Part shown: positions 1 to 56,916 of the stretch, one piece after another
Position numbering within the stretch: position 1 is the stretch's first letter
Layout of the letters: each line of letters begins with the position of its first letter
Sequence record: AJ697969.1
DNA length: 64,000 bases
Reading direction: 5' to 3' (one strand)
Origin: Pseudomonas phage EL
The notes under the pieces: model-generated
What the model was told of the DNA's origin: nothing
Databases searched by the model: none
The model's input: only the letters and a program-made list of their open reading frames with translations
Translations under genes and position numbers: made by a program

Positions 1-294
1 ATGGGTGTCGCTCCAGGGTTCCCGGATTATGATGTCGAAGCACTGATCGGGGTTATTAACGGACTGCGTAAGGAAGAAGACGACGTCATCGATGACTATG
101 TCTTCCACCGGAATGAGTCGGCTAATTACCGGAATCTGGATGAAGAACTTCAACCGTTTATTAAGCCCGCTGTACGGTTCAATGAGAATAACAAAATCGA
201 AATCAAGTTACTGGGCGGTTGGAAACCTTTTAACCCCGCTGTGTCGGGTTCTGTACGGAGAAAAATGAATGAAGACAAACACTTCACCGCCTGA
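1..294 (+). CDS. hypothetical protein (5' partial, runs off window start)
   Basis: Open frame from window edge; stops at 292-294. No recognisable motif. Confidence 0.3.
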   Translation: MGVAPGFPDYDVEALIGVINGLRKEEDDVIDDYVFHRNESANYRNLDEELQPFIKPAVRFNENNKIEIKLLGGWKPFNPAVSGSVRRKMNEDKHFTA

Positions 295-817
295 GTACAT
301 CATCAGTGAGAACGGTGACTGGTTCCATTTCAGTGGGTATTGGGGGGTGTTCTCCCGGTGCTTGTGTCGGATGGGTGGGAAGTTCCATGAGGCTATCGAT
401 GTCTCGTTAACCCCGATTAATGTCTGGCAGTGGGAAAACCTGAAACAGGTTCGTATTCGTAAACACCGCACCGCTGAGACCAATCCCTTTGCCTTTGCCC
501 ATTCGTTCCCCAAAGTGCGTTATGACCACCTGGTAGAAAAAGTGGGGGAGACGGTTGCGCACCTGCTGGTTCACGAGGATCTCTTGGCTGAAATAGACAT
601 GTCGCTGTTTCGCCACATGGATCGTGTGTGGGGATGGGGTGGTGGTGTCCCCTTTATCCTGGTGTGTAAAGAGCGAGACCGTTACCCTGAGCTCCTGGAA
701 CATTGGTTCACTGTATTGGATAACGAATCCGCGTACTTGAAAAGCATGGATGAGGACATGATGCAACGTTATCTCATCCATACTGAAAGCTGTCGGGCTA
801 AAGCCCACTCTCACTAA
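269..817 (+). CDS. hypothetical protein
   Basis: 182-aa ORF; GGAG 8 nt upstream of ATG. Overlaps previous ORF by 26 nt in another frame. Confidence 0.35.
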   Translation: MKTNTSPPEYIISENGDWFHFSGYWGVFSRCLCRMGGKFHEAIDVSLTPINVWQWENLKQVRIRKHRTAETNPFAFAHSFPKVRYDHLVEKVGETVAHLLVHEDLLAEIDMSLFRHMDRVWGWGGGVPFILVCKERDRYPELLEHWFTVLDNESAYLKSMDEDMMQRYLIHTESCRAKAHSH

Positions 818-1878: not shown

Positions 1879-1888
1879 AAATTAATAA

Positions 1889-1906
1889 ACCTATATTACT
1901 CAGGTG
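1889..1906 (+). promoter_or_regulatory. phiKZ-type early promoter-like motif (aCCTATATTACTcaGGTG)
   Basis: TATATTAC core at 1892-1899, 37 nt upstream of the chaperonin ATG. Same core and flanking GGTG as the copies at 17336, 18625 and 59316. Confidence 0.55.
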
Positions 1907-1942
1907 TAATGCAATTAGGTATGGTTTAACAGGAGTACGAAG

Positions 1943-3619
1943 ATGTCTCAAACGCTACTGGTACATGGTAAAGATGCCCAAGGAATCATTAAACAGGTCT
2001 TGAGTGAGGTGTATGACGCCGTCACTTCGACCATGGGTCCGAATGGTCAGTTGGTGATGATCAAGAATGGGGTCTCCACCAAGACCACCAAGGATGGGGT
2101 GACGGTAGCCCGTTCCATTCGCTTTGCAGATGAAGCCCATGAATTGGTGAACCGGGTAATTACCGAGCCGGCTACGAAGACCGATGAGGAATGCGGGGAT
2201 GGCACTACCACCACCATCATGCTGACCCATGCGCTCTATCACCTGTTCAAGGACTTCCCAGGTTTCCAACACCACCGGAACATTGAAGACTTGGTAGAGC
2301 GGGTTATCCAACGTTTGGAATCCATGGCGATTCGGGTGGAAGTGGATGACCCTCGGTTGTATCAAGTGGCCCTGACCTCGTCTAACCAGGATGAAAAGCT
2401 CGCCCGACTGGTTAGTGAGCTCTATGCGAATAACAAAGGGAGTTATCCGGATATTGAACTCAAGGAAGGGGTCAACTTCGAAGACCAGATCGAACAAACT
2501 ACAGGGCGCACTATCCGTATGTTCTACGCGAATCCCTGGTTTGCGAAAGGCCACCAAGGGGGTGTGACAGAATTGACGGGGTTTACGGCGTTCGTTATCG
2601 ATCGTCGGATTGACAAGGAAGACACCCAGAAGTTGATTGATGGGGTGAATCACCTTGTGAAAACTCACAAACAACACCTGGCCCTTCCCATCCTGCTGAT
2701 TGCACGAAGTTTCGAAGAAGCCGCTAACTCGACCCTGATGCAATTGAATGCGGCGCACCCAACCCTGGTAGAAGACGGACGTCCTTGGTTAATCCCGTTG
2801 AGTACGCCGGTAGGTGGTGCAATTGGGACCTCTGAACTGCAAGACATCGCGGTCATGCTGAACGCCCCTATGCTCAGTGACGTAGCGGACCTGACCAAGT
2901 TGGATACCCATTCGATCAATGGCCAACACGGCCAACTGGAACTGGGGGGCAATCGGTCTATCCTGAAGAGTACCACACCTAAGGATGAAGACCGGATCGA
3001 ACAACATGCTCGGGGTATTGAGGAACTGTTGGAGGGGTTTAGCCTCAGCGATAAGTTCTCTGTACGCGCCCGGTACAACGAACGGCGTATTCGGACCCTA
3101 CGGGGTAAGTTGATCACCATTTCCGTAGGCGGCGAAACCTATTCTGAAGTCAAGGAACGGGTAGACCGGTACGAGGATGTGGTGAAAGCCATTCGTTCCG
3201 CCTTGGAGAACGGCATCCTTCCTGGCGGTGGCGTATCCCTGGTTAAGGCGGTCTTCGGTACGATCAAGGAAGGCCTCGAAGATAAAGACCAGAGCGCTGA
3301 GTTTGCTAAGCGGTATATCAACTCAGGCATTGCCAATGAGTTGATGCGACTGTCCACTATTCAGCATAAGCTGTTGTTCAAGGACACGGCGCTGTATAAG
3401 GAAAATGGGAGTTTCCATTTTAATGATGATTGGCTCAATACACCGACCGTCATGAATCTGGCAACTGGTGAGATTGGTACCCCGGAGGGATTGGGTATTT
3501 ATGACACCGCGTATGCCTCTATCACTGCGCTGAAAGGCGGACTCCAAACCGCTAAGATCTTGGCCACTACGAAGACACTGATCCTAGGGGAGAAGTTGTC
3601 GGCGGTTAAGGTGCGGTAA
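1943..3619 (+). CDS. GroEL-like (Cpn60) chaperonin, phage-encoded
   Basis: 558 aa. N-terminal region aligns with GroEL (TMGPNGQLVMI.., ..TKDGVTVARSI..). Canonical ATP-site motif GDGTTT (GDGTTTTIMLTHAL). GGAG SD. No GroES-like ORF adjacent. Confidence 0.85.
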   Translation: MSQTLLVHGKDAQGIIKQVLSEVYDAVTSTMGPNGQLVMIKNGVSTKTTKDGVTVARSIRFADEAHELVNRVITEPATKTDEECGDGTTTTIMLTHALYHLFKDFPGFQHHRNIEDLVERVIQRLESMAIRVEVDDPRLYQVALTSSNQDEKLARLVSELYANNKGSYPDIELKEGVNFEDQIEQTTGRTIRMFYANPWFAKGHQGGVTELTGFTAFVIDRRIDKEDTQKLIDGVNHLVKTHKQHLALPILLIARSFEEAANSTLMQLNAAHPTLVEDGRPWLIPLSTPVGGAIGTSELQDIAVMLNAPMLSDVADLTKLDTHSINGQHGQLELGGNRSILKSTTPKDEDRIEQHARGIEELLEGFSLSDKFSVRARYNERRIRTLRGKLITISVGGETYSEVKERVDRYEDVVKAIRSALENGILPGGGVSLVKAVFGTIKEGLEDKDQSAEFAKRYINSGIANELMRLSTIQHKLLFKDTALYKENGSFHFNDDWLNTPTVMNLATGEIGTPEGLGIYDTAYASITALKGGLQTAKILATTKTLILGEKLSAVKVR

Positions 3620-3630
3620 GGGGTTTGTAA

Positions 3631-3670
3631 AGGAGTAGGGGGAAGACCCCTACTCCTTTATTTTTTTTTT
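3631..3670 (+). terminator. rho-independent terminator
   Basis: Stem aggagtaggggg/ccctactcct followed by T10 run. Confidence 0.7.
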
Positions 3671-3781: not shown

Positions 3782-4411
3782 ATGGCTTCAAACCTTCCAA
3801 TCCAAACGATCTTCCTCGACAAATTCGTCGAGTTCAACAAAGACCGCTACAAAGACCAGGCGGAAATGCTCGCCCTCTTTGACGGCCTGACCCTCGCGGA
3901 CATCACGATCTCCGACATCACCGCCGACGGCGCCAACCCCGAGCTGCAAAGCGCCACGGTCACCTCTGTGAGCCGCAACTTCAAAGGTGTCGAACAAAAA
4001 TGGCTCCCGGCGAACATCAACACTCCGTTCGCCTTCGTGGTGGTGAACAAAGGCGCTCCCCTGACCGGCGAAGACCAACTGGCCGAGCAGACCACCCCGG
4101 GTGCCTACGTTTACCTGGTCGGTGAAGGCGAAGAAGCGGTTCAACGCGTGGGCCTGGTGCTGGCTTCCACCACCACCACTGAAACCCAAGCCGCCGACGC
4201 CCTGGCGCTGTTCAAGGCCAACTTCGAATACGTCCTGGACGACGCCGATGTCGATACTGCCACCGCCAAGGTGCTCAAGGTAACCACCAACCCGTTCACC
4301 CGCGGCGAGCTCGTGTACGAAATTGGTAAGGCTCCGATCATCGAGATTCCGGAAACTGACTACGGTCGTCTGGAATTCAAAGAAATCGTTCAACCCGAAC
4401 CCCAACCGTAA
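3782..4411 (+). CDS. hypothetical protein, GC3-rich; paralogue of the 16098-16691 product
   Basis: 209 aa. N-terminus IFLDKFVEFNKDRYKD..LTLADITISD matches LFLERFIAFNKERYSD..LTLDNTTLSD of the minus-strand ORF 16098-16691. Codons are strongly G/C-ending, unlike its neighbours. AGAGGATAAAGCAATG SD-like. Confidence 0.7.
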   Translation: MASNLPIQTIFLDKFVEFNKDRYKDQAEMLALFDGLTLADITISDITADGANPELQSATVTSVSRNFKGVEQKWLPANINTPFAFVVVNKGAPLTGEDQLAEQTTPGAYVYLVGEGEEAVQRVGLVLASTTTTETQAADALALFKANFEYVLDDADVDTATAKVLKVTTNPFTRGELVYEIGKAPIIEIPETDYGRLEFKEIVQPEPQP

Positions 4412-4566: not shown

Positions 4567-5148
4567 ATGTCATTAGGAATATTCACCATGAGTATGAGTA
4601 CTGCTAAAAGGGGTAACTTTTCTACGTCCCCCGGCAAGGAAGACGATGATCTTCCTCTGCACGAGATCCGGGATGCCTTTAATCCCGCGTTTGTGAAAAC
4701 GTTTGACAAACTGGGCCTCGACCCACAATTGATCAAAGAGTTTATTTACGCGCTTGATCTGCTCGACAACATCGTTAAGACCCCCAACTTCGTATCGGGC
4801 AGAATTCTGAATAACCGAGATATCGAAGCGTACGGCGAAGAAGCGGTCTTCGCGTTCAACCGGAATAACAATATCCCGTACTACTACGTGCGGTTGGGTA
4901 TTACCGTGTCGGAAACGGTGTACAAATTGCAGGACGAGTTTCTGGAACGTGATTATCCCAAAACGATCCTGAGTATTCTCCGCCCCATGCGCACGCCCGG
5001 TATTGACGTGACCGTAGACGGCCATCCTTACAACGTAGGGATTACCTTCAAAACGCCTCATCCTTTGTTCGGTTTGGTGAATTACCAAGATCTCCGGACT
5101 GGGATGAACACTTCAGTCCCCTTCCTACTCACTCGGGTGGGACTTTGA
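4567..5148 (+). CDS. hypothetical protein
   Basis: 193-aa ORF. An internal ATG at 4588 with AGGAA SD may be the true start. Confidence 0.5.
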   Translation: MSLGIFTMSMSTAKRGNFSTSPGKEDDDLPLHEIRDAFNPAFVKTFDKLGLDPQLIKEFIYALDLLDNIVKTPNFVSGRILNNRDIEAYGEEAVFAFNRNNNIPYYYVRLGITVSETVYKLQDEFLERDYPKTILSILRPMRTPGIDVTVDGHPYNVGITFKTPHPLFGLVNYQDLRTGMNTSVPFLLTRVGL

Positions 5149-5248
5149 TCCTCTACCTGCTCCACTGGGCTTAACGCTCCGGTGGAGCGGGGTAGGGGTT
5201 ATTACCGCTTTAAATTTTTCAATACACCAACCCAAAAAGGTAATAACC

Positions 5249-6133
5249 ATGCCGAAGAATGAGAACAATCCTGATAAACAAGGTCTTACGTCTATCTCTG
5301 ATGAAGACTTGGATAAGGCACTCAACGAACTGGACAACGCAGGGGAAGACGTAACTCCGGTGTCCGAAGAGACCACTACGCGGCATCCGGGTACGTCGGA
5401 TATCCTCAACCGCTATTCACATCCCGCCCTTCAGCCGAAGAAGGGAACCCCTGAATACATCGAGTGGAAAGCCGCTCTCAAACAGAAGGAGGACCGATTA
5501 GTGGAATCCTTGAAGACTTCGGTGACCCAGGAACATGAAGAGAATGTCCTGAAAGGGAATACCCTGGGTACTAAACCGAAGACCAAGCAGGTAGAAGGCC
5601 TGTTGGAGATGGTGGTTCGTAAGAAGGCTGAACTCACCCAAGAAGACACCGTAGACGCCGCAGAACGCGCATTGGCAGCGCTGAAGCGGGTGCGGGAATA
5701 TAACCGTAAGAAACGTATTCGACTGTGGTGTATTGTTGTCGGGCTCTTGGTGGTTGTGGGAAGTGGTCTCTATGGGGGGTGGATGTTCGTCCAGAAACAA
5801 ATGCTCACCGGTCATTACACCGTGGTCGCGGAGTGCAAAGTCCCTTACGGGGATTTTGAAATTACCGGTAAGCGGTACTACCGCTACGCGTATCAATCGA
5901 TTCTGGGTTACCACCTCGTGGATGAGGGTACGGTCGAAGAAGTCACCGAAGTCAAACTCCCTGGGGATAAAATCATTATCCTGGGATTCGATGCGAGTAA
6001 AGGGAACTGGTGGCGGATGAACTATGACCGGGGAGAATTCGGTACCGTTAAACTCAAACCTACAGATAAGTACTGGTTCGTCGGCGAGAAAGACCGTACC
6101 ACCCTGGTACCTTATCACTCGTTCTGCCATTAA
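5249..6133 (+). CDS. hypothetical membrane-anchored protein
   Basis: 294 aa. Acidic N-terminal half, then one predicted TM helix (IRLWCIVVGLLVVVGSGLYGGWMFV). SD AAAAAGG. Confidence 0.6.
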   Translation: MPKNENNPDKQGLTSISDEDLDKALNELDNAGEDVTPVSEETTTRHPGTSDILNRYSHPALQPKKGTPEYIEWKAALKQKEDRLVESLKTSVTQEHEENVLKGNTLGTKPKTKQVEGLLEMVVRKKAELTQEDTVDAAERALAALKRVREYNRKKRIRLWCIVVGLLVVVGSGLYGGWMFVQKQMLTGHYTVVAECKVPYGDFEITGKRYYRYAYQSILGYHLVDEGTVEEVTEVKLPGDKIIILGFDASKGNWWRMNYDRGEFGTVKLKPTDKYWFVGEKDRTTLVPYHSFCH

Positions 6134-6162
6134 ACGGTAACCTTACCGAGGGAGTCAATCCC

Positions 6163-6741
6163 ATGCTGAATACTTCAGACCAACCTGTGGGTCTCTTGTC
6201 CAGTCGATTGTACATCGATCCCAACGATGGTTCTTTCTTTACCGGTCATTTGGAAAAGTCCCACAAGAAACGGTGTCACTTAGTACGCCACAAGCTCCAA
6301 TACGCGATCCGGTATTATTCATCCGTTAAACTGCCCGAGGGGTGGTTGGTGGGGATCAGTGACCGGGAGGCAAGCCGGTATTACTTCTTCCCTACCCAGG
6401 GAAAACGGAGGAGTATTCTGGTTCCTTTACCCAGTACAGCGTACCGAGAGATCTGGTTTAACCTGTTTAAAGGGATCTGGATGACTGGTACCCGGGAGGC
6501 TATCTACCTGCACAGTGTGGCGTATCCCCATCTCATGGAGCTCTTGAACGAATCCTTAGTCCCCAGAGTGATTTCTGTTGAAGGTGAATGGAAAGGGGAA
6601 GGGTATATTGCGTCTCTGGAATGGAAGCCTGAAAAACCCGGTCGGTTGATCGTAACAACGACCTTGGATAATGCTAAAGACCACAGTGTTCCGATCCAAT
6701 GGCATCCCATCGATGCGGTGGTTCGTCTCATCCGAAAGTAA
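6163..6741 (+). CDS. hypothetical protein
   Basis: 192-aa ORF, GAGGGAG SD. Tightly packed with its neighbours. Confidence 0.55.
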   Translation: MLNTSDQPVGLLSSRLYIDPNDGSFFTGHLEKSHKKRCHLVRHKLQYAIRYYSSVKLPEGWLVGISDREASRYYFFPTQGKRRSILVPLPSTAYREIWFNLFKGIWMTGTREAIYLHSVAYPHLMELLNESLVPRVISVEGEWKGEGYIASLEWKPEKPGRLIVTTTLDNAKDHSVPIQWHPIDAVVRLIRK

Positions 6742-6753
6742 GAGGATTACATC

Positions 6754-7617
6754 ATGAAAGAAGAAAACCAGAAGAAGACCAACAGTTTCCAAGGTGGCGA
6801 TGTTCGGGTAGTGTCTTCTAAGACGCATCCCGGTAAATCGAAATTCCTCCCGGTAAACCTCATGGGACCGGATACGATCGAGAACCCTGACCAACTGGTC
6901 CTCCAAGTTCATCACCGTCTGACCGAAGGCCAGAAAGCGTTCTACCACACCCTGGAAACCTACGGGCTGTGTAAGGCCTACAGTTCGTCACCCGATCCCC
7001 GTACGTTGGTGATCAACATCGCTACCGGTCTTCCCCACACCAAGGAAGAGAAAGACGCTCCTCGCCGCAGCATCGAGCTGGACGCCGGCATTATCCTCTA
7101 TGCGGTTATCAGCGAACGGGAGGGTGGGGCCTTCAAAATCGTCATCGTGGGAACCGCTACCCATACGTCTTATTTGGTGATCCGTGAGGACGTTGCCTTC
7201 TCGTTTATCATCGATAAGGTGTCTTTGTCGGTTCAGGATGCGGTAGTCGCCCTGTACGCCAGCAACCTCAGCAAAGGTCGAGGGCTCTTCGAGAACACCG
7301 CTAAACACCTTCCGGACTTCTTCTACAAGCTGTTTAAAGCGGTCTTCCCGGAAATGGTTCGTCTGGAATTCACGATCACTCACATTCATGAAGACAGTGT
7401 TCGCGTTGCGCTGTACTGGGATCCTAGGGGACCTAACAAGAATCTCATTGCCTGCAATGGGTTTGTCTTCCCGTTGGACATTTCCCAGTTCCCGGGTAAA
7501 CAAATCTCCCGGGGGTATAACCTCCAGAAGAAAGAAACCCGTCATGTCGCTCACAAACAAAAGACATCTGACCTGTCAGTCAATACCCAGCGTCTGTTGG
7601 AAAAGTTCTCGAAATAG
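6754..7617 (+). CDS. hypothetical protein
   Basis: 287-aa ORF, AAGAGGA SD. A hairpin (gaggtggggggtaacacccctacctc) follows. Confidence 0.6.
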   Translation: MKEENQKKTNSFQGGDVRVVSSKTHPGKSKFLPVNLMGPDTIENPDQLVLQVHHRLTEGQKAFYHTLETYGLCKAYSSSPDPRTLVINIATGLPHTKEEKDAPRRSIELDAGIILYAVISEREGGAFKIVIVGTATHTSYLVIREDVAFSFIIDKVSLSVQDAVVALYASNLSKGRGLFENTAKHLPDFFYKLFKAVFPEMVRLEFTITHIHEDSVRVALYWDPRGPNKNLIACNGFVFPLDISQFPGKQISRGYNLQKKETRHVAHKQKTSDLSVNTQRLLEKFSK

Positions 7618-7700: not shown

Positions 7701-8201
7701 ATGAAAGGTACCCTACCCCATTACCAGATCAGAATTATCGCTAGAAGTGCCTTTACAGACGATTTAAAGGAGAGACTCAAACCACTGTATGAAAACCTCT
7801 TTCACCACGAACTCCATCTCGTCATTGGTACTAAAACAACCCGTAAGCTGTTTAAACCCTCCGCCCGTAAAAATCCCCACCCCTCCGTTATTGAGAAACG
7901 GTACGAAGACTTCTTCAAAGTAACCGACAAGATAGTACTCGTTACTCACTTGGGAGAAGCCGTGGGATATCTGGCGGTGGTTAAGAACAAGATCACCTCA
8001 CTCTTTGTTGAAGAAGACTTCCGGAAGCTAGGCTTAGGGCGGATCATGGTGTCCAAGTTACAACGGGGTGGACATCCTGTGAACCGGTTCCTCTACGTTC
8101 AATGCTTTACCCAGAATACAGCTGGTATCAACTTCTACCGGAAAGTTGGGTTTAAGGAAATTGACAGAGGAGAGATCTACACGGTTTTGTTAATGGAATA
8201 A
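7701..8201 (+). CDS. GNAT-family N-acetyltransferase
   Basis: 166 aa. GNAT motif A (FRKLGLGRIMVSKL, i.e. R-x-x-G-x-G) and motif B-like FYRKVGFKEI. Confidence 0.65.
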   Translation: MKGTLPHYQIRIIARSAFTDDLKERLKPLYENLFHHELHLVIGTKTTRKLFKPSARKNPHPSVIEKRYEDFFKVTDKIVLVTHLGEAVGYLAVVKNKITSLFVEEDFRKLGLGRIMVSKLQRGGHPVNRFLYVQCFTQNTAGINFYRKVGFKEIDRGEIYTVLLME

Positions 8202-14639: not shown

Positions 14640-16082
14640 TTAAGGGGTAAAAACAAGATGGGTGTTCAATTGACCCACCCGCACGGTGGTCGTTTGAGCG
14701 ACCCCTTTCTTCAACACAATCACGACCCGGAGTTTCAAGGTCTTAGGTGCGCTGGCCAATTCAAGGATTTGGGTATCGAAGATTCCCGAGAGATCCCCTT
14801 GACGCAGAGGGTAATTCAGTTCAGTGTTCTGACCCGAGCGCACAGTTTGGACTTGATCGTTCTGGTAGGTTACTTCCAGTTCCAACCCTACTTGCAAGAC
14901 TGCTTCCGCATCGGTTTGAATCGCCCAACGACCCTGAGCTACCAATTTCATCCCTACGGTCAGGTTTGTAATAGGGAGATCCTGTTCCATTCCCAGGGTC
15001 GGTTGATCACCGGTAGGCGTGCCCGTAAAGGACATTACCTGGTATTCACCCCCCGAAGGGTTGGTTTCCTTGGTAATAGCGACGGTCAAACCGATCAGTC
15101 GATTACCCCCAATACCGGTATTCGAGGCGATCTCAACCGTGGTAATGGTAGCACCTCCCGAATCCCCAGCACTACCATCATTACCGATCAACAAAGGGTT
15201 GGGGTTAATGCTCCCGAAGAAGTGGGCGGTCTCCGGCGGTGTCGTGCTGAACGGGATGTAACTGGTTGGCAAGGTAATGGTATTCTTGAACAGCTTGCTC
15301 ACCGCAGTGGCGACATGGTTACCGATGATCTCGGCTCCTTTGGGGCTTGGGTGTACACCGTCCCCCAGCATGCCCGCCAGCGGCTTATTGACATTACCCG
15401 GCTCTACCATGTCATCCCAGGGGTTAACCACGATAACACCCCGTTTAGGCAGCTCAGAGAGCATCCACAGGTGCACTTGGTAATGAATAGCCAATTGTTC
15501 ATCACTGAGCCCAATAGCGGCTTGTTCTACCGGGGTTTCAGCGATCACAATGACGGTTTTGCCATTGGCCAGCAATGTGGCGTAAATCTCGGAGAGGTTA
15601 TTGATCGTTTCATTGAACGTCTGGTTACGCAGACGGTCATTCCCCGAACCCAAATGGATAATGACATCGAACTTATCCAAGGAAGCCAGGAGTTGGGGAA
15701 GACGTTGGGCTTGTTGGGAGGTAGTATTCCCATCGACACCGGCGTTCATGGCATCCGGGAAGGCTACGGCTCCCTCGGTCTTCGCACTGGTCCAGAAGGC
15801 CAGACCAACGTTACCTTTCACGCACTGGTAAGCCCGGCTATCACCGTATACCACGATATTGCGGTTAAACGGCAACCGGTCATTACTTACCGCATTGACT
15901 TTGGTGGTCAGGGTATTCACTTCTTCTTTCAAATAACGGGTACGAGCGTCCAGCACACGTGCTTGCTTGTTCGCATTGCCGGTGCCTTCTTCGGTGGCTT
16001 CAACCTTGTCATCCGGCATCAGAGCCAGCAAAGGTTCAACCCATCCCGGTTGTTCATTAATCACTACGGGATTGTCAGCCAT
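14640..16082 (-). CDS. tail fibre/spike protein with SGNH (GDSL) hydrolase domain
   Basis: 480 aa. N-terminal KQARVLDARTRYLKE anchor motif. SGNH blocks present: I (IVVYGDSRAY), III (HLGSGNDR) and V (DGVHPSPKG, DxxH). Confidence 0.7.
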   Translation of the reverse strand: MADNPVVINEQPGWVEPLLALMPDDKVEATEEGTGNANKQARVLDARTRYLKEEVNTLTTKVNAVSNDRLPFNRNIVVYGDSRAYQCVKGNVGLAFWTSAKTEGAVAFPDAMNAGVDGNTTSQQAQRLPQLLASLDKFDVIIHLGSGNDRLRNQTFNETINNLSEIYATLLANGKTVIVIAETPVEQAAIGLSDEQLAIHYQVHLWMLSELPKRGVIVVNPWDDMVEPGNVNKPLAGMLGDGVHPSPKGAEIIGNHVATAVSKLFKNTITLPTSYIPFSTTPPETAHFFGSINPNPLLIGNDGSAGDSGGATITTVEIASNTGIGGNRLIGLTVAITKETNPSGGEYQVMSFTGTPTGDQPTLGMEQDLPITNLTVGMKLVAQGRWAIQTDAEAVLQVGLELEVTYQNDQVQTVRSGQNTELNYPLRQGDLSGIFDTQILELASAPKTLKLRVVIVLKKGVAQTTTVRVGQLNTHLVFTP

Positions 16083-16097
16083 GAGAATAAGTCCTGT

Positions 16098-16691
16098 TTA
16101 ATACGTGAGGGTGCCGTCGTAACGGAATTGTCCGTTAAAACGAGGAATGGCGTCGTAATGGCTTTCTACGACAGCGAGAGTACCGGTAACGGTGTTGGAA
16201 TCAATGATAGCCTGAGTGAACTCCCCGTCGAGGGTAATTTCATCATCCGTCAAGTCGTAGTAGCATTTGGCTTTGATCAGGGCTTTAATGTGTTCAGGGT
16301 TACGACTCCCTTTGAACACCAATACCGCACCTTCAATGATATCTTCGTCTCGTTTGACTTGGTAAATACCTTCCACCCCCTGGGTTTGTAAAACGTCCCA
16401 ATCAACCGGATCAGGGGTTTCCAGCATGGAGACCTTATTCTTCACATAATCCGCTGGGAGGTACCGTTGGTTCTTACCGGTCAGTTTACCTTCGGAATCG
16501 ATGTTGACCACCCGAGCAAATTCACCACCTTCTACCTCAACTTTCCTGAGGTCAGAGAGGGTAGTATTGTCCAGGGTGAGTTGTTCTAATACACTAACAA
16601 TGTTCGGTTCATCGGAATAACGTTCTTTATTAAAAGCGATGAACCGTTCCAGAAACAGTAGATCGTTTGGAAAGGCCATGGGCGTGTCCAC
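16098..16691 (-). CDS. hypothetical protein, first gene of fibre operon; paralogue of 3782-4411 product
   Basis: 197 aa. Conserved N-terminal ~45 aa shared with ORF 3782. Codon usage is AT3-rich like the bulk genome, unlike its paralogue. Confidence 0.65.
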   Translation of the reverse strand: MDTPMAFPNDLLFLERFIAFNKERYSDEPNIVSVLEQLTLDNTTLSDLRKVEVEGGEFARVVNIDSEGKLTGKNQRYLPADYVKNKVSMLETPDPVDWDVLQTQGVEGIYQVKRDEDIIEGAVLVFKGSRNPEHIKALIKAKCYYDLTDDEITLDGEFTQAIIDSNTVTGTLAVVESHYDAIPRFNGQFRYDGTLTY

Positions 16692-17328: not shown

Positions 17329-17350
17329 TCAAGTCTATATTACTTGGGTG
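17329..17350 (+). promoter_or_regulatory. phiKZ-type early promoter-like motif (TCAAGTCTATATTACTTGGGTG)
   Basis: 22 nt identical to 59307-59330. TATATTAC core at 17336-17343, 42 nt upstream of ATG 17392. Extended similarity (GTAATCArGTCTATATTAC) with 18617-18640. Confidence 0.6.
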
Positions 17351-17391: not shown

Positions 17392-17871
17392 ATGGCTAAA
17401 CAGTCGAACTTCACCATCGCTAACTACAACGCCGTCCTGGAAGCTGTTAAAGCCAACAACGGTTACGTGATCGACACCCACGGTGGTAGCCGTGGACCTT
17501 ATCGTGCTGCTGGTATCGCCGCACTGGTGAAGGACGAAAGGGTTACCCCGGTGCTGCTGTGCCATGGTTCCTACTTCTGCCTGAACTCGCTGCACAAGGA
17601 AGCCGATGGTTCGGTGACCCTCTCCAGCTGGTCGGTCGGTGTTACCATCTTCACCCACCAACACGGTGGGCTGGAAGAAGCGATCCAAGCCTACAACAAG
17701 GAGCAATCCGAGTGGGCGTTGTCGGGTGGTCAACTGATGCATGTACGCATCTTCGACTACACCGACGAAACCGCACCTGTGTTCGGCGAGCCAGTTGATC
17801 TGGCAGGCGAAGTCGTGGGTGCGCTGGCAGCACAAGAGCCGATCGCCAAGGTCGACATCCCTGCTCAATAA
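17392..17871 (+). CDS. hypothetical protein, GC3-rich (early gene)
   Basis: 159 aa. Strong G/C-ending codon bias. Directly downstream of the promoter motif, with SD AGAGG. Confidence 0.65.
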   Translation: MAKQSNFTIANYNAVLEAVKANNGYVIDTHGGSRGPYRAAGIAALVKDERVTPVLLCHGSYFCLNSLHKEADGSVTLSSWSVGVTIFTHQHGGLEEAIQAYNKEQSEWALSGGQLMHVRIFDYTDETAPVFGEPVDLAGEVVGALAAQEPIAKVDIPAQ

Positions 17872-17916
17872 CGAGCAGTTTTCTGTACGTAATCTGACTT
17901 CATTAGGAGCAATGCC

Positions 17917-18324
17917 ATGAGTAATGTAATGCACGTTAGCACCATCGCCGGTCGTACCGCCCTGACGGTGATCACACCCGACGACCTGCCGGTTACCAAC
18001 TGGATGGAAAATGTGCTTGCTGCACAGATCCAGAAAGTGGTTGACGAAGGTAAGGGTTGGCCCAACGACGCCGAGTTCAAGGTGGAGGTTACCTACCACA
18101 CTTGGCCACAGGGTTGGGACCGGGAAGTGTACACGCACTTCTTTACCAACCGCGCCGAGCTGGACTCCTACATCAAGGACCAGCACGAGTGGGCCCGTTG
18201 TGAGGACAACATGGTGAAGATCAAGATCTACAACTGGGACCTCGGTCCGAACTTCATGGAAACTCGTGAGTTCGGTGGTCCTGAGTTGTGGAACAGCCCT
18301 CTGAGCCGTCCTTACTTGACGTAA
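17917..18324 (+). CDS. hypothetical protein, GC3-rich (early gene)
   Basis: 135 aa. Same codon bias as the upstream gene, SD AGGAG. Followed by a terminator. Confidence 0.65.
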   Translation: MSNVMHVSTIAGRTALTVITPDDLPVTNWMENVLAAQIQKVVDEGKGWPNDAEFKVEVTYHTWPQGWDREVYTHFFTNRAELDSYIKDQHEWARCEDNMVKIKIYNWDLGPNFMETREFGGPELWNSPLSRPYLT

Positions 18325-18616: not shown

Positions 18617-18640
18617 ATCAGGTCTATATTACCTTTGTGT
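18617..18640 (+). promoter_or_regulatory. phiKZ-type early promoter-like motif (AATCAGGTCTATATTACCTTTGTG)
   Basis: TATATTAC core at 18625-18632, 52 nt upstream of ATG 18692. Confidence 0.55.
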
Positions 18641-18691: not shown

Positions 18692-19048
18692 ATGTTATCT
18701 ATGAGTCAAGTCAAGAAAGCGATGAAAGGTGTTCTGAAAGGTAACAGTCGAACGGCCGATAAGTTTGTATTATGGATGCCAGTTGAGCTACGCGATAAGG
18801 TTAGCGAACGCGCAACGGCCAATGGGCGGAGTATGAATGCTGAATTTATCATGCTCATACAGGCTGCGATAGCCAGTGGGAACACAGGTGGAACCCAAAT
18901 AAGGACTATTCCATCGGTAGGTGACCCTGTTCGGGTTGAAGGGCTCCCAGGTGTGGTGACTGAATTGATACCGACACCGACTGGATTAAAGATCCGGGCA
19001 AAAACCTGTGAGGGAGAGGATATTTATTCGTTATGGGAGATTGTTTGA
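18692..19048 (+). CDS. Arc/MetJ-type ribbon-helix-helix DNA-binding protein with C-terminal extension
   Basis: 118 aa. FVLWMPVELRDKVSERATANGRSMNAEFIMLIQAAI aligns with the Arc repressor pattern (FNLRWPREVLDLVRKVAEENGRSVNSEIYQRVMESF). Confidence 0.6.
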   Translation: MLSMSQVKKAMKGVLKGNSRTADKFVLWMPVELRDKVSERATANGRSMNAEFIMLIQAAIASGNTGGTQIRTIPSVGDPVRVEGLPGVVTELIPTPTGLKIRAKTCEGEDIYSLWEIV

Positions 19049-38486: not shown

Positions 38487-41400
38487 TCAATTCAAACGGA
38501 CGGTTTTATCGGTTCCCTGATTCACCTGTTTGTCTTGCATCTCCGCCATCCGACCCAGTACCTTGTAGATCTCAGCCAGAATACTGTTCGTATCCGAACT
38601 GTTATCACCCAGTTTACCCAACGAGGCCTTAAGCTCAGCCACCAACGCAGAGTCATCACTACGGGTGGTCGTAAGTGCCTCGGTACCCCGAGGGGACTGA
38701 GGAACAGGTTCAGACGGCGCAGGCGGAACCGGTTGAGGTGCAGAGGGAGGTGGAGAACCCTCATTAGACCTCGGAGTCGAGATCGGAACATCCGTAGCCG
38801 GGTTACCAAAGGTGGGAGTAGGCGTAGGTGGAACGTTCCGTTGCATCGGTCCTACCACACCACCGCCCAGTCCGGTGGTATCCTGTCCATTCACGGACTG
38901 CCCGCCTTGCACAGCGTTAAGGAACTTGTTCGCTGCTTCAGGGGACTTAAAGGCCGCGTGGATATGCCCGCCCGTACCGAGTGCCGTTCGACTGCGGTAT
39001 TCATTGATGACTTGGAATTCCTGAGGGCTTAACCCTGCCCGACGAAGAATATCCGTTACAATGGCAACCGCTTGGTCACTTCCTTGTGCACCATTCACCA
39101 GGGTGAAGTCTAACGCCAGGCCTTTAGGATGAGCGCCTTTAGACCCCTTATTGACGTGGTAGGCGTCATTCAGTGCAGAGAAGTACCGGAAACCCGGAAC
39201 TGTCTGTTGAATGATTTTACCCAGTTCTTCCACAGCAGGGTGGTGTTCACCCCCCGCAATGGCTTCAGGGGATTTCAGGCGCAATCCACTGCTACCCGGT
39301 GTATTGGTGTTAACGATCATCCCACCGTTATCACCTGACCCGTATTGTCCCCCTCCGCCTCCCATGGTTCCATTCAGGGACGGCAGACTACCACCCACAA
39401 CGCCCGGAGCCGGTCTACTGACTTGAGGACGCTGGGGTTCGCTGGGGGCTTCTTGACCGTACAGGTCGGACCCGGTTTGGCTCCCTAACCCACTCCCAGC
39501 CGTTTTATCAGCTGTGGTCAGTTCACCACTTTGTAGTTTCTTCAGGTAATTCAGATAGAGCGCATAGCGCTGAGGCATTTCAGGTAACGGATTACCTCCA
39601 TTCAACCCTGTTGCCGCTCTACCGAAGTCACCGGTTTGGCTAATACTTCTCAAGAGCTTAGAGTTCCTGAAGAAGTTCACCGCAATGGCTGCCATGACGT
39701 TCGGATCGTTACTGGCCAGCTCTGGTCTGTTCTCCAGATCAATACCCAGCTCTTGGCCAACCCTCCGGTAATTAGCGCGACCCGTCAGCTGAATAAACCC
39801 ACGCCCTCGGTAACGGTACCCATCACCGGCTTCCCTGTTCCCTAAGGAAGCACCTTTACCCCCACCGTACACGGTATTGGCGATGGCCACTTCACCGGCT
39901 TGTACGAGCGCTCTCGCTTGTTCCATGCTCTTCACTTCCCTGAAGAGTTGAACCAAGCGTTCCGGACTGCTGTACTTCATGTTCTCAGTGGTCCGGGAAT
40001 AGCCTGAAGACTCGTAGTTGGTAAGGGCGAGCATTTCAGCGATTTCACGAGGGTCCGTAAAGCCTTGTTTCAGCATCTCACGGATGATCAACTGCTCCGC
40101 CAACGGCTTAGGAACACTCACCCCTCGATCCGTTCCTTGGTTCGTACGTACACCGGTCATATCCAAATGACTGGTGTCCGAATCACCCGTAATAGGCGTG
40201 AAACCAAAGGCATTCTCAGGGGTTCTGAACCGACCGTCGCTGCTGTACGTATTCCCAGCGTCTCCGCCAAAGGTACCGTACATCCCTCCTAGAGCAGAAT
40301 CTCTCCGAGACCGGAATTGTTCCGGGGTAGAAACATTCGCTTGTTGGTCGGTGAACCCACCCCCTACCCGGTGAGGACTGATCTTCTCAGCCCAGGTTTG
40401 GGCGTTGGTCTTACCCGCTTCCAATTCAGGGTCTTTGAGTTTAGCTTCTACCGACGCTTCCCCCAAGAGGTTCAACATCCTGTCAACTTTATCCGACCGT
40501 CCGGGAGAGGTTTCCCAGGCGAAGGGTGCTGCTCTCACATTCCACACCGAGATGGTAAAGCCAAAGACGCCATTGACTTGGGTTTGAGTCAGTTCCTTGG
40601 CGATCTCATACCGTGCGGTAGCGGAAAGGGTTCTCCAAACCACACCCGGTAGCCCCCGACGGTATTTCCTCATCAGGGTCATGTAGTTGGTCAGCACCGG
40701 CAGGAACCGATCCCTGAACCACTTGCACCAGGCATCCGCGTACCGATCATCCACCCGGAAGGCGTCCTTGAACCGAGCGAAGAGTTCACCTATGTTGCCC
40801 TTGAACACCATGTCATCCCCTTTCGCCATAAACAGGGATTCACAATGACGTTCCAACTTGAGGACGGCTTCGACTCGCCAGGGGACATCCTTATCGTTCC
40901 CGTAGGTAGCCACCCGGATAGCGGTAAGCATATCCAAGGCTTTACCATCTGGCATCAGGTCTTGGATATAGATCTGGCCGACAACCGCATTGGCGGTATA
41001 CGCTTTCCCTAACCGATCGATTTCACCTTTAACCTCCTTCAGGCGATCGGTGGCCTCCATCTTCTCCCCGAAGTCTTTCCACTGGGTACTCCGGTCTTCC
41101 AGCTTCCGTTCCAGTTGAACCCGTTCCTTCTGAAGGGACTCCAGACTTTGGCCTTTAACCGTAGAGACGGCAAAGGGATCAATGGTGGGATCTTTAGCCC
41201 CGACATACTTCTTAAGGGCATCCAAGAGGTTACCCACCCGGATGATCGTCATTTGTTGATCAAGGAGAGGAGTCTCTTTGTCAATCTTAGCTACGATCTG
41301 GTACGGGGAAGGCACCAACCCACTGAGGGCACTGTGGGCTTGTTTGGCCACTTTGTACACGATTAAGTCAGACGAATCGTCATAGTCCTTCAACGATCGC

Positions 41401-44400
41401 AGTTTAACCGCATCCAAACAGGCCAGGTAGGTCAAGTAAACGGGTTTGAACCGTCCATTGAACCAGGTAAAGACTTCACCAATTTCATTACGGTCTTGAG
41501 GATTGCCTACGAAGAGACGAAGGACTTCCTCAATAGGCGCTTGCTTAGACAGCGACGCGCGCCCATTCCCAATCACCACATGGTCTTTTAGCAGGTTCTC
41601 AACGTTGAGGATTTTAGCCGCCAGGGGACCGTGAGGATCTGAGAGACCGTACTGAACCATCCGTAGTTCAATTTGCTTCCCTTTACCTGAACCAAACAGG
41701 GAATCCCATCCCCATTTAGAAGTCCCCAACATCACCCCAAAGGGACTGTACATCGAAGACCCCAGGGCATCCGTAGTAGGACTCTTTCCTTTGACCTTTT
41801 CCAAAATCCATTTCGCAATGGTCTGTCCACCCAGTAAGCCCGCGGTGGCACCCACTTGTTGGTAAAGACTATTACCGGCTTTACCCACTTTAAGGATTTG
41901 GTCGGTGGTACCGAGTTTCTTCGTTTCTTCGTCAGTAGCGACCTGGTACATTTCGTACGCAGACAATGCACCTGCGCCAATCAAACCGGCGCGTCCTGCA
42001 CCCAGTTTACCCAAGTGTCCGAGTCCACCCAGACCATTCAATAACCCACCGAGTCCACCAGCGACGCCCTTAGCGATAATCGTCAACAGTTTAAGTCCCA
42101 TACGACCGAACTTAAACAATGCACTGAACCCGCTCCAGAGGACCTCAGAACCCAGGAAGCTGGTCAGCCACTCGAAGCCTTTCTTAACACCCCCTACCAA
42201 ACTGCTCAGGAGACCGAAGATACCGAACTTCTTCTTCTTACCGAGTTCTTTCTCATCCTTCATACCGAAACCGAAGTTTTCAGCAATCGAGATGATGGCG
42301 TTCTTAACGGTGTTGTCTTTCTCTTCCTGGAGTTTTTGCGCACGGTCGGCCAGGGAGTTAGCTCGGGTGGCATCATTGGACGACGCTGACCGACGGAACC
42401 GATCGGTGTTGTCCCCTTCCCCCGCTTTTCCTTTAGCGGCTCTAAAGCTCTCCAGGGCGTCTTTAAGCGCTGGATTCTTTTCCATAAGGGCTTCGGTAAG
42501 GGTAAGATCGTTTCGATCTCCTAGGGACCCTGGAGGGCCTTCTGGGCCATCTTGGGAACCTGGTGCCGGGGGAGTGAAGGGATTGGGGCTACCATCCGGT
42601 GAGTTATACCCCCAATGTTTCAAGAGGAGGTAATAGATCCGATCCACGGAATTGACCACTGGAGAGTGATCCGTACTGAACGGATTCTTAACCCGACCCC
42701 CCATGCCTTTCGCATACCCACCTGCGCGGTCTTTCAATTTACCGAAGAGGTCCAACCCGAACTGTCCGGCTTGTCTAAGGCCCGCGCCCAGCTTGTTGAT
42801 ACTGGTCCCCATGGAGGTTTTAAGTCCACGGTCGTATTCTTCAGCCGTGATCAGGGTATTCCCTTCCTTGTCATACACCGGGCCATCGATCTCATCCCAT
42901 CCCTGGAGTTCAACGAACCCGTCTCCACTCCGTTTGAAGTATTGACCTTTACCAAAGCGACTCCCCAGCAAAACCGGTTCGTCTTCACCTTCAATGTAAA
43001 TATCCATCCGGTACAGACGGGTACGAGCTTTATCCCAAAACCCTTTAATGCGGTTAACAGGATCCAGCCAGTTAAAGGCTTTCATAAAGAGATCCCGAAC
43101 CTTATTCAGGCCTTTAAGGAATACTTCCTTGTTGTCTTCGGTAAAGAGTTTACCCGCTAAGCGGCTAGCGCCAATAACGGCTCCATTGGCCAGGTCTTTA
43201 ATACTCCCAGTAATCTGATCCCACCCCTGAATGATCTTCCCGGTGAGCATATCCAGATACTCACCCTTAAAGAGTTTAAAGGATTCAAGGATCGGGGTAT
43301 CAGACCCTTCTTCGTACAGGTCTTCCGTGTTCTCGGCTCGATGAGCAGCCGCTCGGGCACGCAACTTGTTATATGCCATCCCTAGCGCCAAGCCACCTCC
43401 TACCAATGCAGCACCTTTCGGGTTGTAGATCGCCATACCCGCCAATCCACCCAGTAAGCCACCCAGTACCAACGGTTGGTTATCCAGGAGTTTGTCTATT
43501 CCCTTATTAAACAGATCCCCAAACGACGTACTCTTAATCCGTTCCAGAATACTCCGTTTTTGTTGCTGGAGGGTTTCTTCAGCTTCAGGAGTGGGTTTCT
43601 CGTAGGGTTGACGTTCCAAGATCTTGGTGAGGATATCGTTCCGGTTCCCTCCCAGTTCTACCAGTTTACCCAGCAGGCTGTTCCCTTGAGTCACCTGGTC
43701 GTTCAGAGCGGTGAACATCGAAGACGGATCCGTAAGACCCGAACGACTTACACCTCCCTGTTCAATATGTGCCCCGAGTTTATCCAAAGTTTCCCGTACA
43801 CCCTGAAGGGTTTCATTCAACTGAGCGTTCTCAGCTGCAATCATACCTCCGGAGTCTCGACGCCCTCTTCCCCGTCTGCCAAAGGAACGGGTCTTACGCA
43901 CCGCTTCTTCCAGAGGGTTGTCATACACCATAGCACGGTCAGGGTTATCAATGAAGGACTGGAGGACGTTCCGGAAGGTGTCCATATTGACTTCATCGTG
44001 GCCATTTTCAGACTTGATGATGCCAGCTTCTTTCATGACGTTGTAATACCCAGACGAACGCAGCATATCGACGCGCTCGGCAATGTCCGGCATAAACCGA
44101 CCCAGGAGGTTGGATTGTTCCGTTAACTTGGCGGCGCGTTCTCGGGCTTGTTCTGTAGGAAGACGAGCAATAGCGCTCGCCCGGTCCAGGGTACTGCCCT
44201 CCTTAAAGGCCGTAAAGGCTTCCGGGGTAATATCAAAATTCCGTTGGAACAATTCCCGGATTTCATCCGCTACCTGACGGTTTACCCCTTTGGTCTCCAA
44301 GTTCATGTACAGGTACGGACTGAACCCTTTCCGTTTATCCGCATTCTGAACCAGTTGCATCGCCAATACACGGCGGGCTTCGTTGGACAATTCCTTATTG

Positions 44401-49354: not shown

Positions 49355-49546
49355 ACCACCGCGGGCGATCAATTGTCGAGCCATTCTGTTGTAGCGGAAG
49401 ACAGCAAACAACAGGCCTACGAACTCTTTGGGAAACGGGAGTATTACATCAGTGGTACGGGTCGGTTTTTGTACGATCCGATCAATGAACCGATTCTCTT
49501 TATGTTTAAAGCAGCGACGAGCGGCTTAGAGGATATTGAGGTATGA
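49355..49546 (+). CDS. putative exon 2 of the beta-prime-like gene (C-terminal ~63 codons)
   Basis: Frame-2 open stretch from 49346 (..TTAGDQLSSHSVVAEDSKQQAYELFGKREYYISGTGRFLYDPINEPILFMFKAATSGLEDIEV) ends in TGA overlapping ATG 49543 (ATGA). It has no start codon or SD of its own, consistent with an exon. Confidence 0.35.
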   Translation, partial: TTAGDQLSSHSVVAEDSKQQAYELFGKREYYISGTGRFLYDPINEPILFMFKAATSGLEDIEV

Positions 49547-56913: not shown

Positions 56914-56916
56914 TGA

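Follow-up and report, generated by a model that had tools for sequence, protein, structure and literature searches.

Introduction

The chaperonin gp146 of phage EL is the founding example of the phage-encoded chaperonins. Its annotation dates from 2005, its biochemistry was described in 2012 and its analysis by cryo-EM and crystallography followed between 2016 and 2020; a 2025 review names it as the key feature of the phage. The protein hydrolyses ATP and prevents aggregation in a nucleotide-dependent manner, and its tetradecamers give rise to single heptameric rings with ATP (PMC7185714). The structures deposited with that study (PDB 6TMT-6TMX) comprise crystal structures at 3.5-4.0 Å and cryo-EM at 3.45 Å, and contain open rings only, whether in the apo, ADP, ATP-gamma-S or ATP-BeFx state (PMC7185714). 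A low-resolution cryo-EM study from 2016, as summarised in two later papers, had described a closed, spherical, ADP-bound single ring together with refolding activity (Molugu et al., in PMC7185714, PMC5934643); this closed single-ring state was not reproduced by Bracher et al. (PMC7185714). Together with the chaperonins of phages AR9 and OBP, that of EL has been assigned to a 'prospective new group' (PMC9598537).

Here, we analyse a chaperonin gene in a 64-kb stretch of DNA (the window; G+C content about 0.49, in agreement with the 49.3% listed for EL), for which a preliminary description had suggested a chaperonin that is independent of a co-chaperonin and possibly single-ringed. We hold, with a probability of roughly 0.9, that the locus is gene 146 of the Pseudomonas aeruginosa jumbo phage EL (genus Elvirus), or of an isolate that cannot be told apart from EL here, and that it encodes a distant, ATP-driven GroEL homologue which operates without a GroES-type lid, appears to have a transcription unit of its own and most likely holds and releases its clients. 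The finding is correct and already known, and as such is a rediscovery of established knowledge. What is added here is a controlled negative result for Cpn10 genes, the monocistronic look of the chaperonin gene, and a lack of co-chaperonin-like traits in an 86-aa orphan nearby.

Results

The locus encodes the phage EL chaperonin

The gene extends from an ATG at position 1943 to position 3619 on the + strand and encodes 558 aa, all of which (558/558, full length) are identical to the protein in PDB entries 6TMT, 6TMU, 6TMV, 6TMW and 6TMX. By virtue of this identity, its subunit consists of equatorial, intermediate and apical domains and assembles into heptameric rings, as described for these structures (PMC7185714). 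Consistently, the product is matched by Pfam family PF00118 (Cpn60_TCP1; E 8e-27, 94.5 bits, curated cutoff 34.3) and, over aa 2-554, by PHROG 5725 'chaperonin groEL' (E 1.8e-170). Its GDGTTT motif (aa 85-90) is the counterpart of GroEL G86-T91 in the alignment. The full-length Cpn60 homologue with this motif, as claimed in the preliminary description, is thus confirmed.

Seven Elvirus-type genomes have the same gene order around the gene and are 97-98% identical to the window over the flanking 8 kb. The assignment to EL is based on the identity of the protein and on this close resemblance to relatives. Its neighbours had been portrayed as 86- to 234-aa proteins of no recognised kind, and this holds: the flanking ORFs of 86 aa (889-1149, + strand, about 9.5 kDa, two genes upstream), 234 aa (1174-1878; 229 aa in the annotation of relatives) and 209 aa (3782-4411) match no Pfam family, and none has a known function. 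The 86-aa orphan, which is intact in five EL-like relatives, is considered here as context rather than as a demonstrated part of the system.

The nucleotide-binding site is conserved

Identity between gp146 and GroEL amounts to 23-26%. Despite this distance, which is one of the points that might favour a decayed protein, pairwise and five-sequence alignments show that all nucleotide-binding and catalytic residues are conserved. T30, G32, P33, K50 and D51 of gp146 correspond to GroEL T30, G32, P33, K51 and D52; G85-D86-G87-T88-T89-T90, S146 and D412 correspond to GroEL 86-91, S151 and D398; and G428-G430, N505, I519 and D521 correspond to GroEL 414-416, N479, I493 and D495. The preliminary description had pointed to a loss of key ATPase residues as the mark of a pseudo-chaperonin; in the alignment to GroEL, all of them are intact.

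Compared with five other EL-like phages, the protein differs by 5-8 residues in each case, and none of these substitutions falls on a nucleotide-site residue. Synonymous codon differences exceed non-synonymous ones in every comparison (19:5, 32:8, 31:7, 42:7 and 35:5). The gene is thus under purifying selection, and together with the conserved ATP-site residues this shows that gp146 is not a pseudo-chaperonin.

A chaperonin that has decayed and lost its ATP-dependent function might nevertheless be suspected from what gp146 does not share with GroEL. The allosteric salt bridges D83-K327 and R197-E386 are not conserved, and the inter-ring contact residues R452, E461, S463, V464, K105, A109 and E434 are either not conserved or deleted. 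Likewise, the C-terminus reads ...LGEKLSAVKVR and has no GGM tail, whereas that of GroEL reads ...GGMGGMGGMGGMM. Against such decay stand the retention of every residue of the active site, an ORF that is intact and under purifying selection in six phages, and the measurement of both ATPase and chaperone activity (PMC7185714). Because of the published ATPase data and the conservation found here, we regard this explanation as already refuted and give it practically no credence.

The gene appears to be monocistronic

No sigma-70-like promoter was found on the + strand between positions 800 and 4700. This is consistent with the host-RNA-polymerase-independent transcription of phiKZ-like phages, and we therefore tested for a phage motif. 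In the early promoters used by the virion RNA polymerase, an AT-rich motif is centred near -10 (PMC7598289). A motif of the phage early-promoter type is located at 1882-1900 (+ strand); its core, TATATTAC (1892-1899), precedes the ATG by 44 nt, in line with the early promoter motif noted in the preliminary description. The 19-mer at this site, TTAATAAACCTATATTACT, agrees at 15 of 19 positions with WTTTYAAACCTACATTATY, a predicted EL promoter listed in the motif table of PMC7058600. The core occurs four times in the window, always on the + strand and in the common context TC-TATATTAC-T..GGTG. The looser pattern CTAYATTAY is found six times, again exclusively on the + strand, against an expectation of 1.16, and none of 100 shuffles reached this number. 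Among four aligned EL-like relatives, the motif upstream of gp146 is identical in three, and the fourth carries a single substitution just 3' of the core. Presumably, the motif functions as an early promoter of the phiKZ type and directs early expression of gp146.

A good Shine-Dalgarno sequence, AGGAG, was read at 1931-1935 (+ strand), 7 nt before the ATG. Downstream, an intrinsic terminator at 3627-3670 (+ strand) begins 8 nt past the stop codon and consists of a 15-bp stem with a 5-nt loop (3627-3661) and a T run that ends at 3670 (T10), which agrees with the strong terminator that had been placed behind the gene. It is kept in EL-like relatives, one of which differs by a substitution next to the loop and by a T run of reduced length. 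Because the promoter motif lies upstream and the terminator downstream, the gene looks monocistronic and appears to form its own transcription unit without a partner gene.

No recognisable co-chaperonin gene in an EL-type genome

The greedy ORF set assigned the wrong strand at some loci when compared with the annotation (e.g., 14658-16391 and 55303-57042), and for this reason all six-frame ORFs were scanned for GroES. Within the window, 108 such ORFs of 70-150 aa gave no Pfam match to Cpn10 (PF00166) at E<=0.05 and no co-chaperonin PHROG at E<=0.001. For MIZ-Pa99, a genome with 98% identity, the scan was extended to the other 146 kb, where 186 six-frame ORFs in the size range of co-chaperonins likewise had no PF00166 match, and no co-chaperonin is among the listed products of that record (240 features). 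A tblastn search with GroES gave no E value better than 0.79 for the window or 0.34 for the complete MIZ-Pa99 genome. As a positive control, the Cpn10 scan was applied to GroES itself and to a divergent phage cpn10, which it detected at 3.6e-30 and 1.6e-9, respectively. With respect to cofactors that can be recognised by sequence profile, to which the exclusion applies, no cpn10 gene is recognisable anywhere in an EL-type genome.

Two statements of the preliminary description bear on this result. The absence of a GroES homologue, which it had left to be checked elsewhere in the operon, extends to the window and to the remaining 146 kb of the related genome. Its remark that no GroES-like ORF of about 10 kDa is nearby also stands, with the refinement that an ORF of about this mass does exist two genes upstream, namely the 86-aa orphan, which is not GroES-like by the tests run. 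BLASTP against GroES gave E 0.65, the protein belongs to no Pfam or PHROG family, and it has no homologues beyond EL-like phages, as a database of 5.8 billion proteins contains just one cluster of it, at 99% identity. An AF2 single-sequence model of low confidence (pLDDT 55.5) has a mixed alpha/beta fold with two helices, as opposed to the all-beta GroES. In a MAFFT alignment, the segment GKVLAAFNLGN of the orphan was placed against GEVLAVGNG of GroES.

It might still be that gp146 needs a phage cofactor that escapes recognition, be it a GroES-like lid of very divergent sequence or a small protein of another kind, and possibly one of the flanking orphans. Such a need would explain why model substrates failed to refold in vitro, as is the case for rhodanese (PMC7185714), and Bracher et al. 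leave room for the EL genome to encode a remote GroES homologue or some cofactor unrelated to GroES (PMC7185714). The ORFs around gp146 are without known function, and the nearest non-EL chaperonins, those of Erwinia phage Joad and Klebsiella phage Miami, are each followed immediately by an ORF of about 86 aa. In Joad this ORF is gp193 (86 aa) and in Miami it is gp206 (85 aa); both directly adjoin the 3' end of the chaperonin gene and match no Pfam family. A conserved small partner gene does not emerge from them, however, as neither they nor the 86-aa ORF of EL have detectable similarity to each other or to GroES; the match in size is fortuitous or no more than an analogy of position. Moreover, the EL ORF is an orphan confined to EL-like phages and its low-confidence model is not a beta-barrel, the Cpn10 profile found nothing while its control was positive, and gp146 is bracketed by a promoter motif and a terminator of its own, which speaks against a co-transcribed partner. 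Finally, recombinant gp146 by itself has been reported to protect the endolysin gp188 (PMC7185714, PMC9598537). Taken together, we consider the requirement for such a cofactor improbable.

Candidate clients

The preliminary description had named the endolysin and a giant lysin in the window as candidate substrates. The former is encoded at 54280-55158 (+ strand) by an ORF of 292 aa and 32 kDa, which is the size of gp188 as described in PMC3821690. It matches PG_binding_1 of Pfam (E 1.4e-6) and has PHROG hits, and the lytic transglycosidase 9udh is matched by the C-terminal half of the protein (E 2.2e-28). We infer that this ORF is gp188, a reported and disputed substrate of gp146. On the one hand, co-purification of gp188 with gp146 and its protection from aggregation were reported by Kurochkina et al. 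in 2012, as relayed in PMC7185714, and gp146 is expressed from 15 min post infection and associated with gp188 (PMC7185714). On the other hand, Tafoya et al. (2013) found gp188 to fold and to be fully active without gp146 and saw no association on gel filtration, and thus disputed its status as a substrate (PMC3821690). The proposal of the endolysin as a substrate is hence backed by the former observations and contested by the latter; gp188 is the leading candidate for a native client.

The giant lysin corresponds to an ORF of 2543 aa at 38487-46118 (- strand) with a lysozyme-like (GH19-type) domain at aa 2098-2150. The annotation of MIZ-Pa99 has two 'tail fiber protein' CDS in the equivalent region, and the protein is most likely a peptidoglycan hydrolase associated with the virion or the tail. 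A literature search on this protein as a gp146 client found no evidence.

Discussion

How might gp146 act on its clients without a lid? According to the published mechanism, nucleotide-free gp146 is a double ring with in-register 1:1 contacts between the rings. Binding of ATP renders the seven apical domains equivalent and exposes the substrate-binding groove, and at physiological salt it splits the complex into single rings. Hydrolysis takes place at the fully conserved site in the equatorial domain, its staged progression releases the client, and non-native proteins are chaperoned without a GroES-type lid. The published observations of an absent GroES interaction and of double rings that become single with ATP (PMC7185714) agree with the initial proposal of a co-chaperonin-independent, possibly single-ring chaperonin. 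Because the best-resolved structures contain no closed chamber, we favour the notion that gp146 is most likely an ATP-gated holder and releaser which counteracts the aggregation of labile phage proteins, and not an encapsulating folding cage.

Alternatively, gp146 may be an encapsulating foldase whose single rings close in an iris-like manner through their own apical domains after ATP hydrolysis, so that an expanded and sealed chamber is formed and the ring serves as its own lid. Such a cage was put forward by Molugu et al. (2016), according to PMC5934643 and PMC7185714. In support of such an activity, a review credits gp146 with the folding of beta-galactosidase, which is too large for GroEL (PMC5934643), and the chaperonins of phages AR9 and OBP are reported to refold denatured endolysin without a co-chaperonin (PMC9598537). 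The closed state, however, rests on a low-resolution map according to these summaries, whereas the crystal and cryo-EM states of gp146 are all open and without a built-in lid element, and rhodanese, a substrate that depends on encapsulation, is not refolded (PMC7185714). A foldase of this kind is therefore conceivable but considerably less likely than a holder.

A lid might also be borrowed from the host. Many phages exploit the host GroEL/GroES system, and for some viral GroELs encoded without a GroES gene the use of the host co-chaperonin has been suggested (PMC5649160); in that case, gp146 would employ host GroES during infection and no phage gene would be needed. The alignment to GroEL, which the preliminary description had recommended for inspection of the apical domain, shows largely hydrophobic residues at the positions that correspond to the helix H/I groove of GroEL (Y195, W199, F200, V235, L238, L265 and M266), although the two sequences align poorly there. 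The groove itself, however, is narrower and shallower than that of GroEL (PMC7185714). The biochemical test that had been suggested is also available in published form: gp146 is an active ATPase and interacts neither functionally nor physically with E. coli GroES, which at an 8-fold excess did not affect the ATPase and was not protected by gp146 from proteinase K (PMC7185714). The recruitment of host GroES is thus largely refuted, and we deem it very unlikely.

With regard to the holder and releaser that we favour, it is doubtful that a phage cofactor other than GroES, such as a flanking orphan or another small EL protein, caps the ring or triggers release; as a separate matter, it is similarly doubtful that the obligate client is a protein different from the endolysin, such as the lysin-bearing tail protein of 2543 aa.

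Comparison with known chaperonins

The phage EL gp146 of the literature ('phi-EL' chaperonin; Kurochkina 2012, Molugu 2016, Bracher 2020) and the protein encoded here are the same, with no detectable difference and a matching Elvirus context. Next to it stands a divergent jumbo-phage branch of the Cpn60 family, with 33-41% identity to gp146, that includes the chaperonins of PDB 6HDD, Joad (40% identity) and Miami (35%). The first of these (515 aa, 7 chains) is the best non-self PDB match of gp146 (E 1.4e-51) and is what we take to be the cryo-EM structure of the single-ring viral chaperonin gp246 of Pseudomonas phage OBP. Like gp146, OBP gp246 is reported to work without a co-chaperonin, but it was purified solely as a single heptameric ring, whereas gp146 alternates between double and single rings (PMC5934643, PMC9598537). 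As for EL, no cpn10 gene adjoins those of the Joad and Miami chaperonins. More distantly, gp228 of Bacillus phage AR9 is likewise a GroEL-like protein of a jumbo phage which is reported to operate without a co-chaperonin and to act on the phage endolysin (PMC9598537); in contrast to gp146, to which it is about 20% identical, it occurs as a single ring only.

Among cellular chaperonins, group I is closest by sequence, with matches over nearly the full length at E 1e-36 to 1e-29. E. coli GroEL/GroES and mitochondrial Hsp60/Hsp10 share with gp146 the three-domain subunit, the seven-membered rings and identical ATP-site residues, and both Hsp60 and GroEL can pass through single-ring states (PMC7185714, PMC5934643). 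Unlike them, gp146 has no GroES partner gene and does not bind GroES, its rings contact each other in a 1:1 rather than the staggered 1:2 arrangement of GroEL, its apical domain carries insertions, no encapsulation has been seen and rhodanese is not refolded (PMC7185714). Group II chaperonins (archaeal thermosome, eukaryotic CCT/TRiC) match only aa 8-161, at E 2e-15 to 7e-6. They resemble gp146 in the absence of a separate co-chaperonin and in their in-register 1:1 contacts (PMC7185714, PMC5934643), yet gp146 is devoid of their built-in lid of helical protrusions and has seven instead of eight to nine subunits per ring. The protein is a lidless relative of GroEL that splits into single rings and may never encapsulate its client, and a likeness to an ancestral chaperonin mechanism has been proposed for it.

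Identity and conservation of the chaperonin

The open reading frame (ORF) at 1943-3619 on the plus strand starts with ATG and encodes 558 amino acids, exactly where the preliminary description had placed a full-length Cpn60 homologue. A profile search matched it to Pfam Cpn60_TCP1 with 94.5 bits (curated threshold 34.3, E = 8e-27), the PHROG 'chaperonin groEL' matched across almost its full length (E = 1.8e-170), and the expected GDGTTT motif occupies residues 85-90; chance is not a tenable explanation for this assignment. Among all PDB chain sequences, 6tmt, 6tmu, 6tmv, 6tmw and 6tmx, labelled 'Putative GroEL-like chaperonine protein', are identical to it at 558/558 residues. These entries represent gp146 of Pseudomonas aeruginosa phage EL as solved by crystallography and cryo-EM (Bracher et al., 2020, PMC7185714), and a 2025 review lists EL as AJ697969, 211,215 bp, 49.3% G+C, with 'GroEL chaperonin (gp146)' as key feature; G+C in the window is ~0.49. 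All that the preliminary description had observed at this gene was borne out. The chaperonin is thus already known, and indeed its class was founded on it.

Over its first 8 kb, the window shares 97-98% identity and gene order with seven EL-like Pseudomonas phage genomes. The chaperonin was compared in five of them: each carries 5-8 substitutions relative to the window protein, with ratios of synonymous to non-synonymous codon changes from 19:5 to 42:7 and none at the ATP site. Together with the full identity to gp146, this places the window in EL itself or in an isolate not distinguishable from it at this locus. Pairwise alignment to E. coli GroEL (MG1655), and a second alignment that added the chaperonins of Erwinia phage Joad and Klebsiella phage Miami and a GroES-paired viral GroEL, showed that gp146 keeps all nucleotide-site residues (GroEL T30, G32, P33, K51, D52 and G86-T91, and likewise S151, D398, G414-G416, N479, I493 and D495). 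Loss of key ATPase residues would have pointed to a pseudo-chaperonin; since none is lost and synonymous changes dominate, we reject that reading.

Public annotation is uneven: three records label the chaperonin of EL-like relatives 'hypothetical protein', inconsistencies occur in PV400809.1, OP599913.1 and PV472050.1, and the taxonomy line of MIZ-Pa99, a 98%-identical EL-type phage, reads Straboviridae, while near-identical genomes are placed in Elvirus/Chimalliviridae.

Predicted expression signals

An early promoter motif ahead of the gene and a strong terminator behind it had also been proposed, and both are present. The motif TATATTAC, which has been reported as the core of early promoters in phiKZ, lies at 1892-1899 (+), 44 nt upstream of the gp146 ATG, and the 19-mer around it agrees with the predicted EL promoter consensus (table in PMC7058600) at 15 of 19 positions. 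A ribosome-binding site, AGGAG, can be read at 1931-1935 (+), and a terminator with a 15-bp stem (3627-3661, +) and a following T run starts 8 nt past the stop codon. Given these three elements, the gene looks, from its sequence, like a monocistronic unit; EL-like relatives retain both the promoter motif and the terminator. An early promoter fits the expression of gp146 from 15 minutes after infection, as published work cited in PMC7185714 has it. The motif is consistent with phage transcription: in jumbo phages that carry RNA polymerase genes, early-promoter motifs are rich in A and T and centre on about -10 (PMC7598289), and a promoter scan found no sigma-70-like promoter on the plus strand near the gene.

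The window holds four copies of TATATTAC, all on the plus strand and in the common context TC-TATATTAC-T..GGTG. The looser CTAYATTAY is found six times where 1.16 are expected, and 0 of 100 shuffles reached that number; its further copies lie at 17336, 18625, 28142, 33857 and 59316 (+), three of them within AGTC-TATATTAC-TTGGGTG or a close variant, and could serve to map early transcription units. Directly downstream of the TATATTAC copy at 18625-18632 lies a 118-aa ORF (18692-19048, +) that carries an Arc-like ribbon-helix-helix DNA-binding domain (PF03869, E = 5.9e-14) and is a candidate early regulator of phage transcription.

Other genes in the window and its relatives

The plus-strand gene block holding the chaperonin ends with a 166-aa GNAT-family acetyltransferase (7701-8201, +; PF13508, E = 1.1e-8; PF00583, E = 2.3e-8); MIZ-Pa99 has a second annotated acetyltransferase ~4 kb before the point where the window begins. 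The 182-aa ORF at 269-817 (+) is called 'terminase large subunit' in two records, although it matched no Pfam family and only a PHROG of unknown function. MIZ-Pa99 also carries an annotated 'HslV family peptidase' (17658-18206, outside the window), which on that annotation would be a second protein-quality-control gene beside the chaperonin in the same phage.

A complete group I intron lies at 48945-49317 (+; Rfam RF00028, 51.1 bits, gathering score 50, E = 4.6e-10), directly 3' of an ORF of 423 aa whose product carries an HNH_3 endonuclease domain (E = 4.7e-11; joint span 47677-49317, +). The unit sits between ORFs 46149-47594 and 49543-52746, both RNA polymerase beta subunit pieces by the MIZ-Pa99 annotation, neither recognised by Pfam. 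The arrangement resembles a gene for a phage multisubunit RNA polymerase split by an intron plus homing endonuclease, and the 57-aa ORF at 49373-49546 may be its 3' exon.

Candidate clients

The endolysin and a giant lysin had been put forward as candidate substrates. The former corresponds to the 292-aa ORF at 54280-55158 (+), which combines a domain for peptidoglycan binding with a C-terminal half that resembles lytic transglycosylases; it agrees with the published description of gp188 (292 aa, 32 kDa; PMC3821690). Support for it as a client is divided: gp188 co-purified with gp146 and was shielded by it from thermal aggregation, according to work cited in PMC7185714 and PMC9598537, whereas Tafoya et al. 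(PMC3821690) found gp188 fully active without the chaperonin and saw no association between the two, which led them to reject it as a substrate. Bracher et al. (PMC7185714) speculate that gp146 might keep gp188 inactive until late infection. For the giant lysin, a 2543-aa ORF with a GH19-like domain (38487-46118, -), a literature search found no evidence either way. The ORF runs uninterrupted in the window, but its MIZ-Pa99 counterpart is annotated as two 'tail fiber protein' CDS (3465 and 4119 nt); the isolates may truly differ by a frameshift or stop codon, or the discrepancy may be an artefact of sequencing or annotation.

Search for a co-chaperonin

No GroES-like ORF had been noticed nearby, and wider searches agree. 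Within the window, the best tblastn match to E. coli GroES had an E of 0.79, and none of the 108 six-frame ORFs of 70-150 aa matched Cpn10 (Pfam, E <= 0.05) or a co-chaperonin PHROG (E <= 0.001). Because the window is only ~30% of the genome, we also scanned the remaining 146 kb of MIZ-Pa99: its listed products include no co-chaperonin, GroES and a phage cpn10 as tblastn queries scored at best E = 0.34, and none of 186 further ORFs of 78-135 aa matched the Cpn10 profile, which detected E. coli GroES (3.6e-30) and a divergent phage cpn10 (1.6e-9) as positive controls. In contrast, some other viral GroELs (e.g., MW202828.1) have an adjacent cpn10 gene, as do ~40% of chaperonin-bearing virioplankton contigs (PMC5649160).

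A conserved 10-kDa partner would be of interest, because Bracher et al. (PMC7185714) do not rule out a distant GroES homologue or unrelated cofactor in EL. An ORF of ~86 aa lies directly downstream of the chaperonin in Joad (gp193) and Miami (gp206), the nearest non-EL carriers, and in EL one of 86 aa (889-1149, +) lies upstream, two genes away. The three share no detectable similarity; the EL ORF is confined to EL-like phages in a search of 5.8 billion clusters, matches GroES only at E = 0.65 (BLASTP), and yields a low-confidence single-sequence AlphaFold2 model (pLDDT 55.5) of mixed alpha/beta structure, unlike the GroES beta-barrel. A cofactor role for it is thus unsupported. Joad (4926-7514) and Miami (4959-7492) share the order chaperonin, ~86-aa ORF, thymidylate or thymidine kinase; the window's counterpart of the MIZ-Pa99 'thymidylate kinase' lies at 63298-63951, ~60 kb from the chaperonin. 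Just upstream in Joad, a thymidylate synthase gene is split by a GIY-YIG homing endonuclease.

Mechanism and comparison with GroEL

How might gp146 act without GroES? The preliminary description suggested a single-ring or co-chaperonin-independent chaperonin, a reading that anticipates, and is supported by, existing experiments. Gp146 hydrolyses ATP, stops aggregation of denatured protein only with nucleotide present, and does not refold rhodanese, an encapsulation-dependent substrate; E. coli GroES, whose mobile-loop residues for GroEL binding are completely conserved in P. aeruginosa, neither binds it nor affects its ATPase (PMC7185714). It forms tetradecamers with 1:1 ring contacts, which ATP at physiological salt separates into single heptameric rings (PMC7185714). 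All states solved in that work are open and lack a built-in lid (PMC7185714). The main rival proposal, in conflict with this, is that a single ring closes around an enlarged chamber; it comes from an earlier low-resolution study, as cited in PMC7185714 and PMC5934643.

As for the apical GroES-binding residues, the positions aligned to the GroEL groove are mostly hydrophobic in gp146, in a region where the alignment is weak, and the published structure ascribes the lost binding to a narrower, remodelled groove (PMC7185714); residue inspection alone would not have predicted this loss. Elsewhere gp146 departs clearly from GroEL: the allosteric salt bridges D83-K327 and R197-E386 and the inter-ring contact residues are not conserved and the GGM tail is absent, in agreement with the structural paper (PMC7185714). 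The proteins of EL, OBP and AR9 are treated as a prospective new chaperonin group (PMC9598537).
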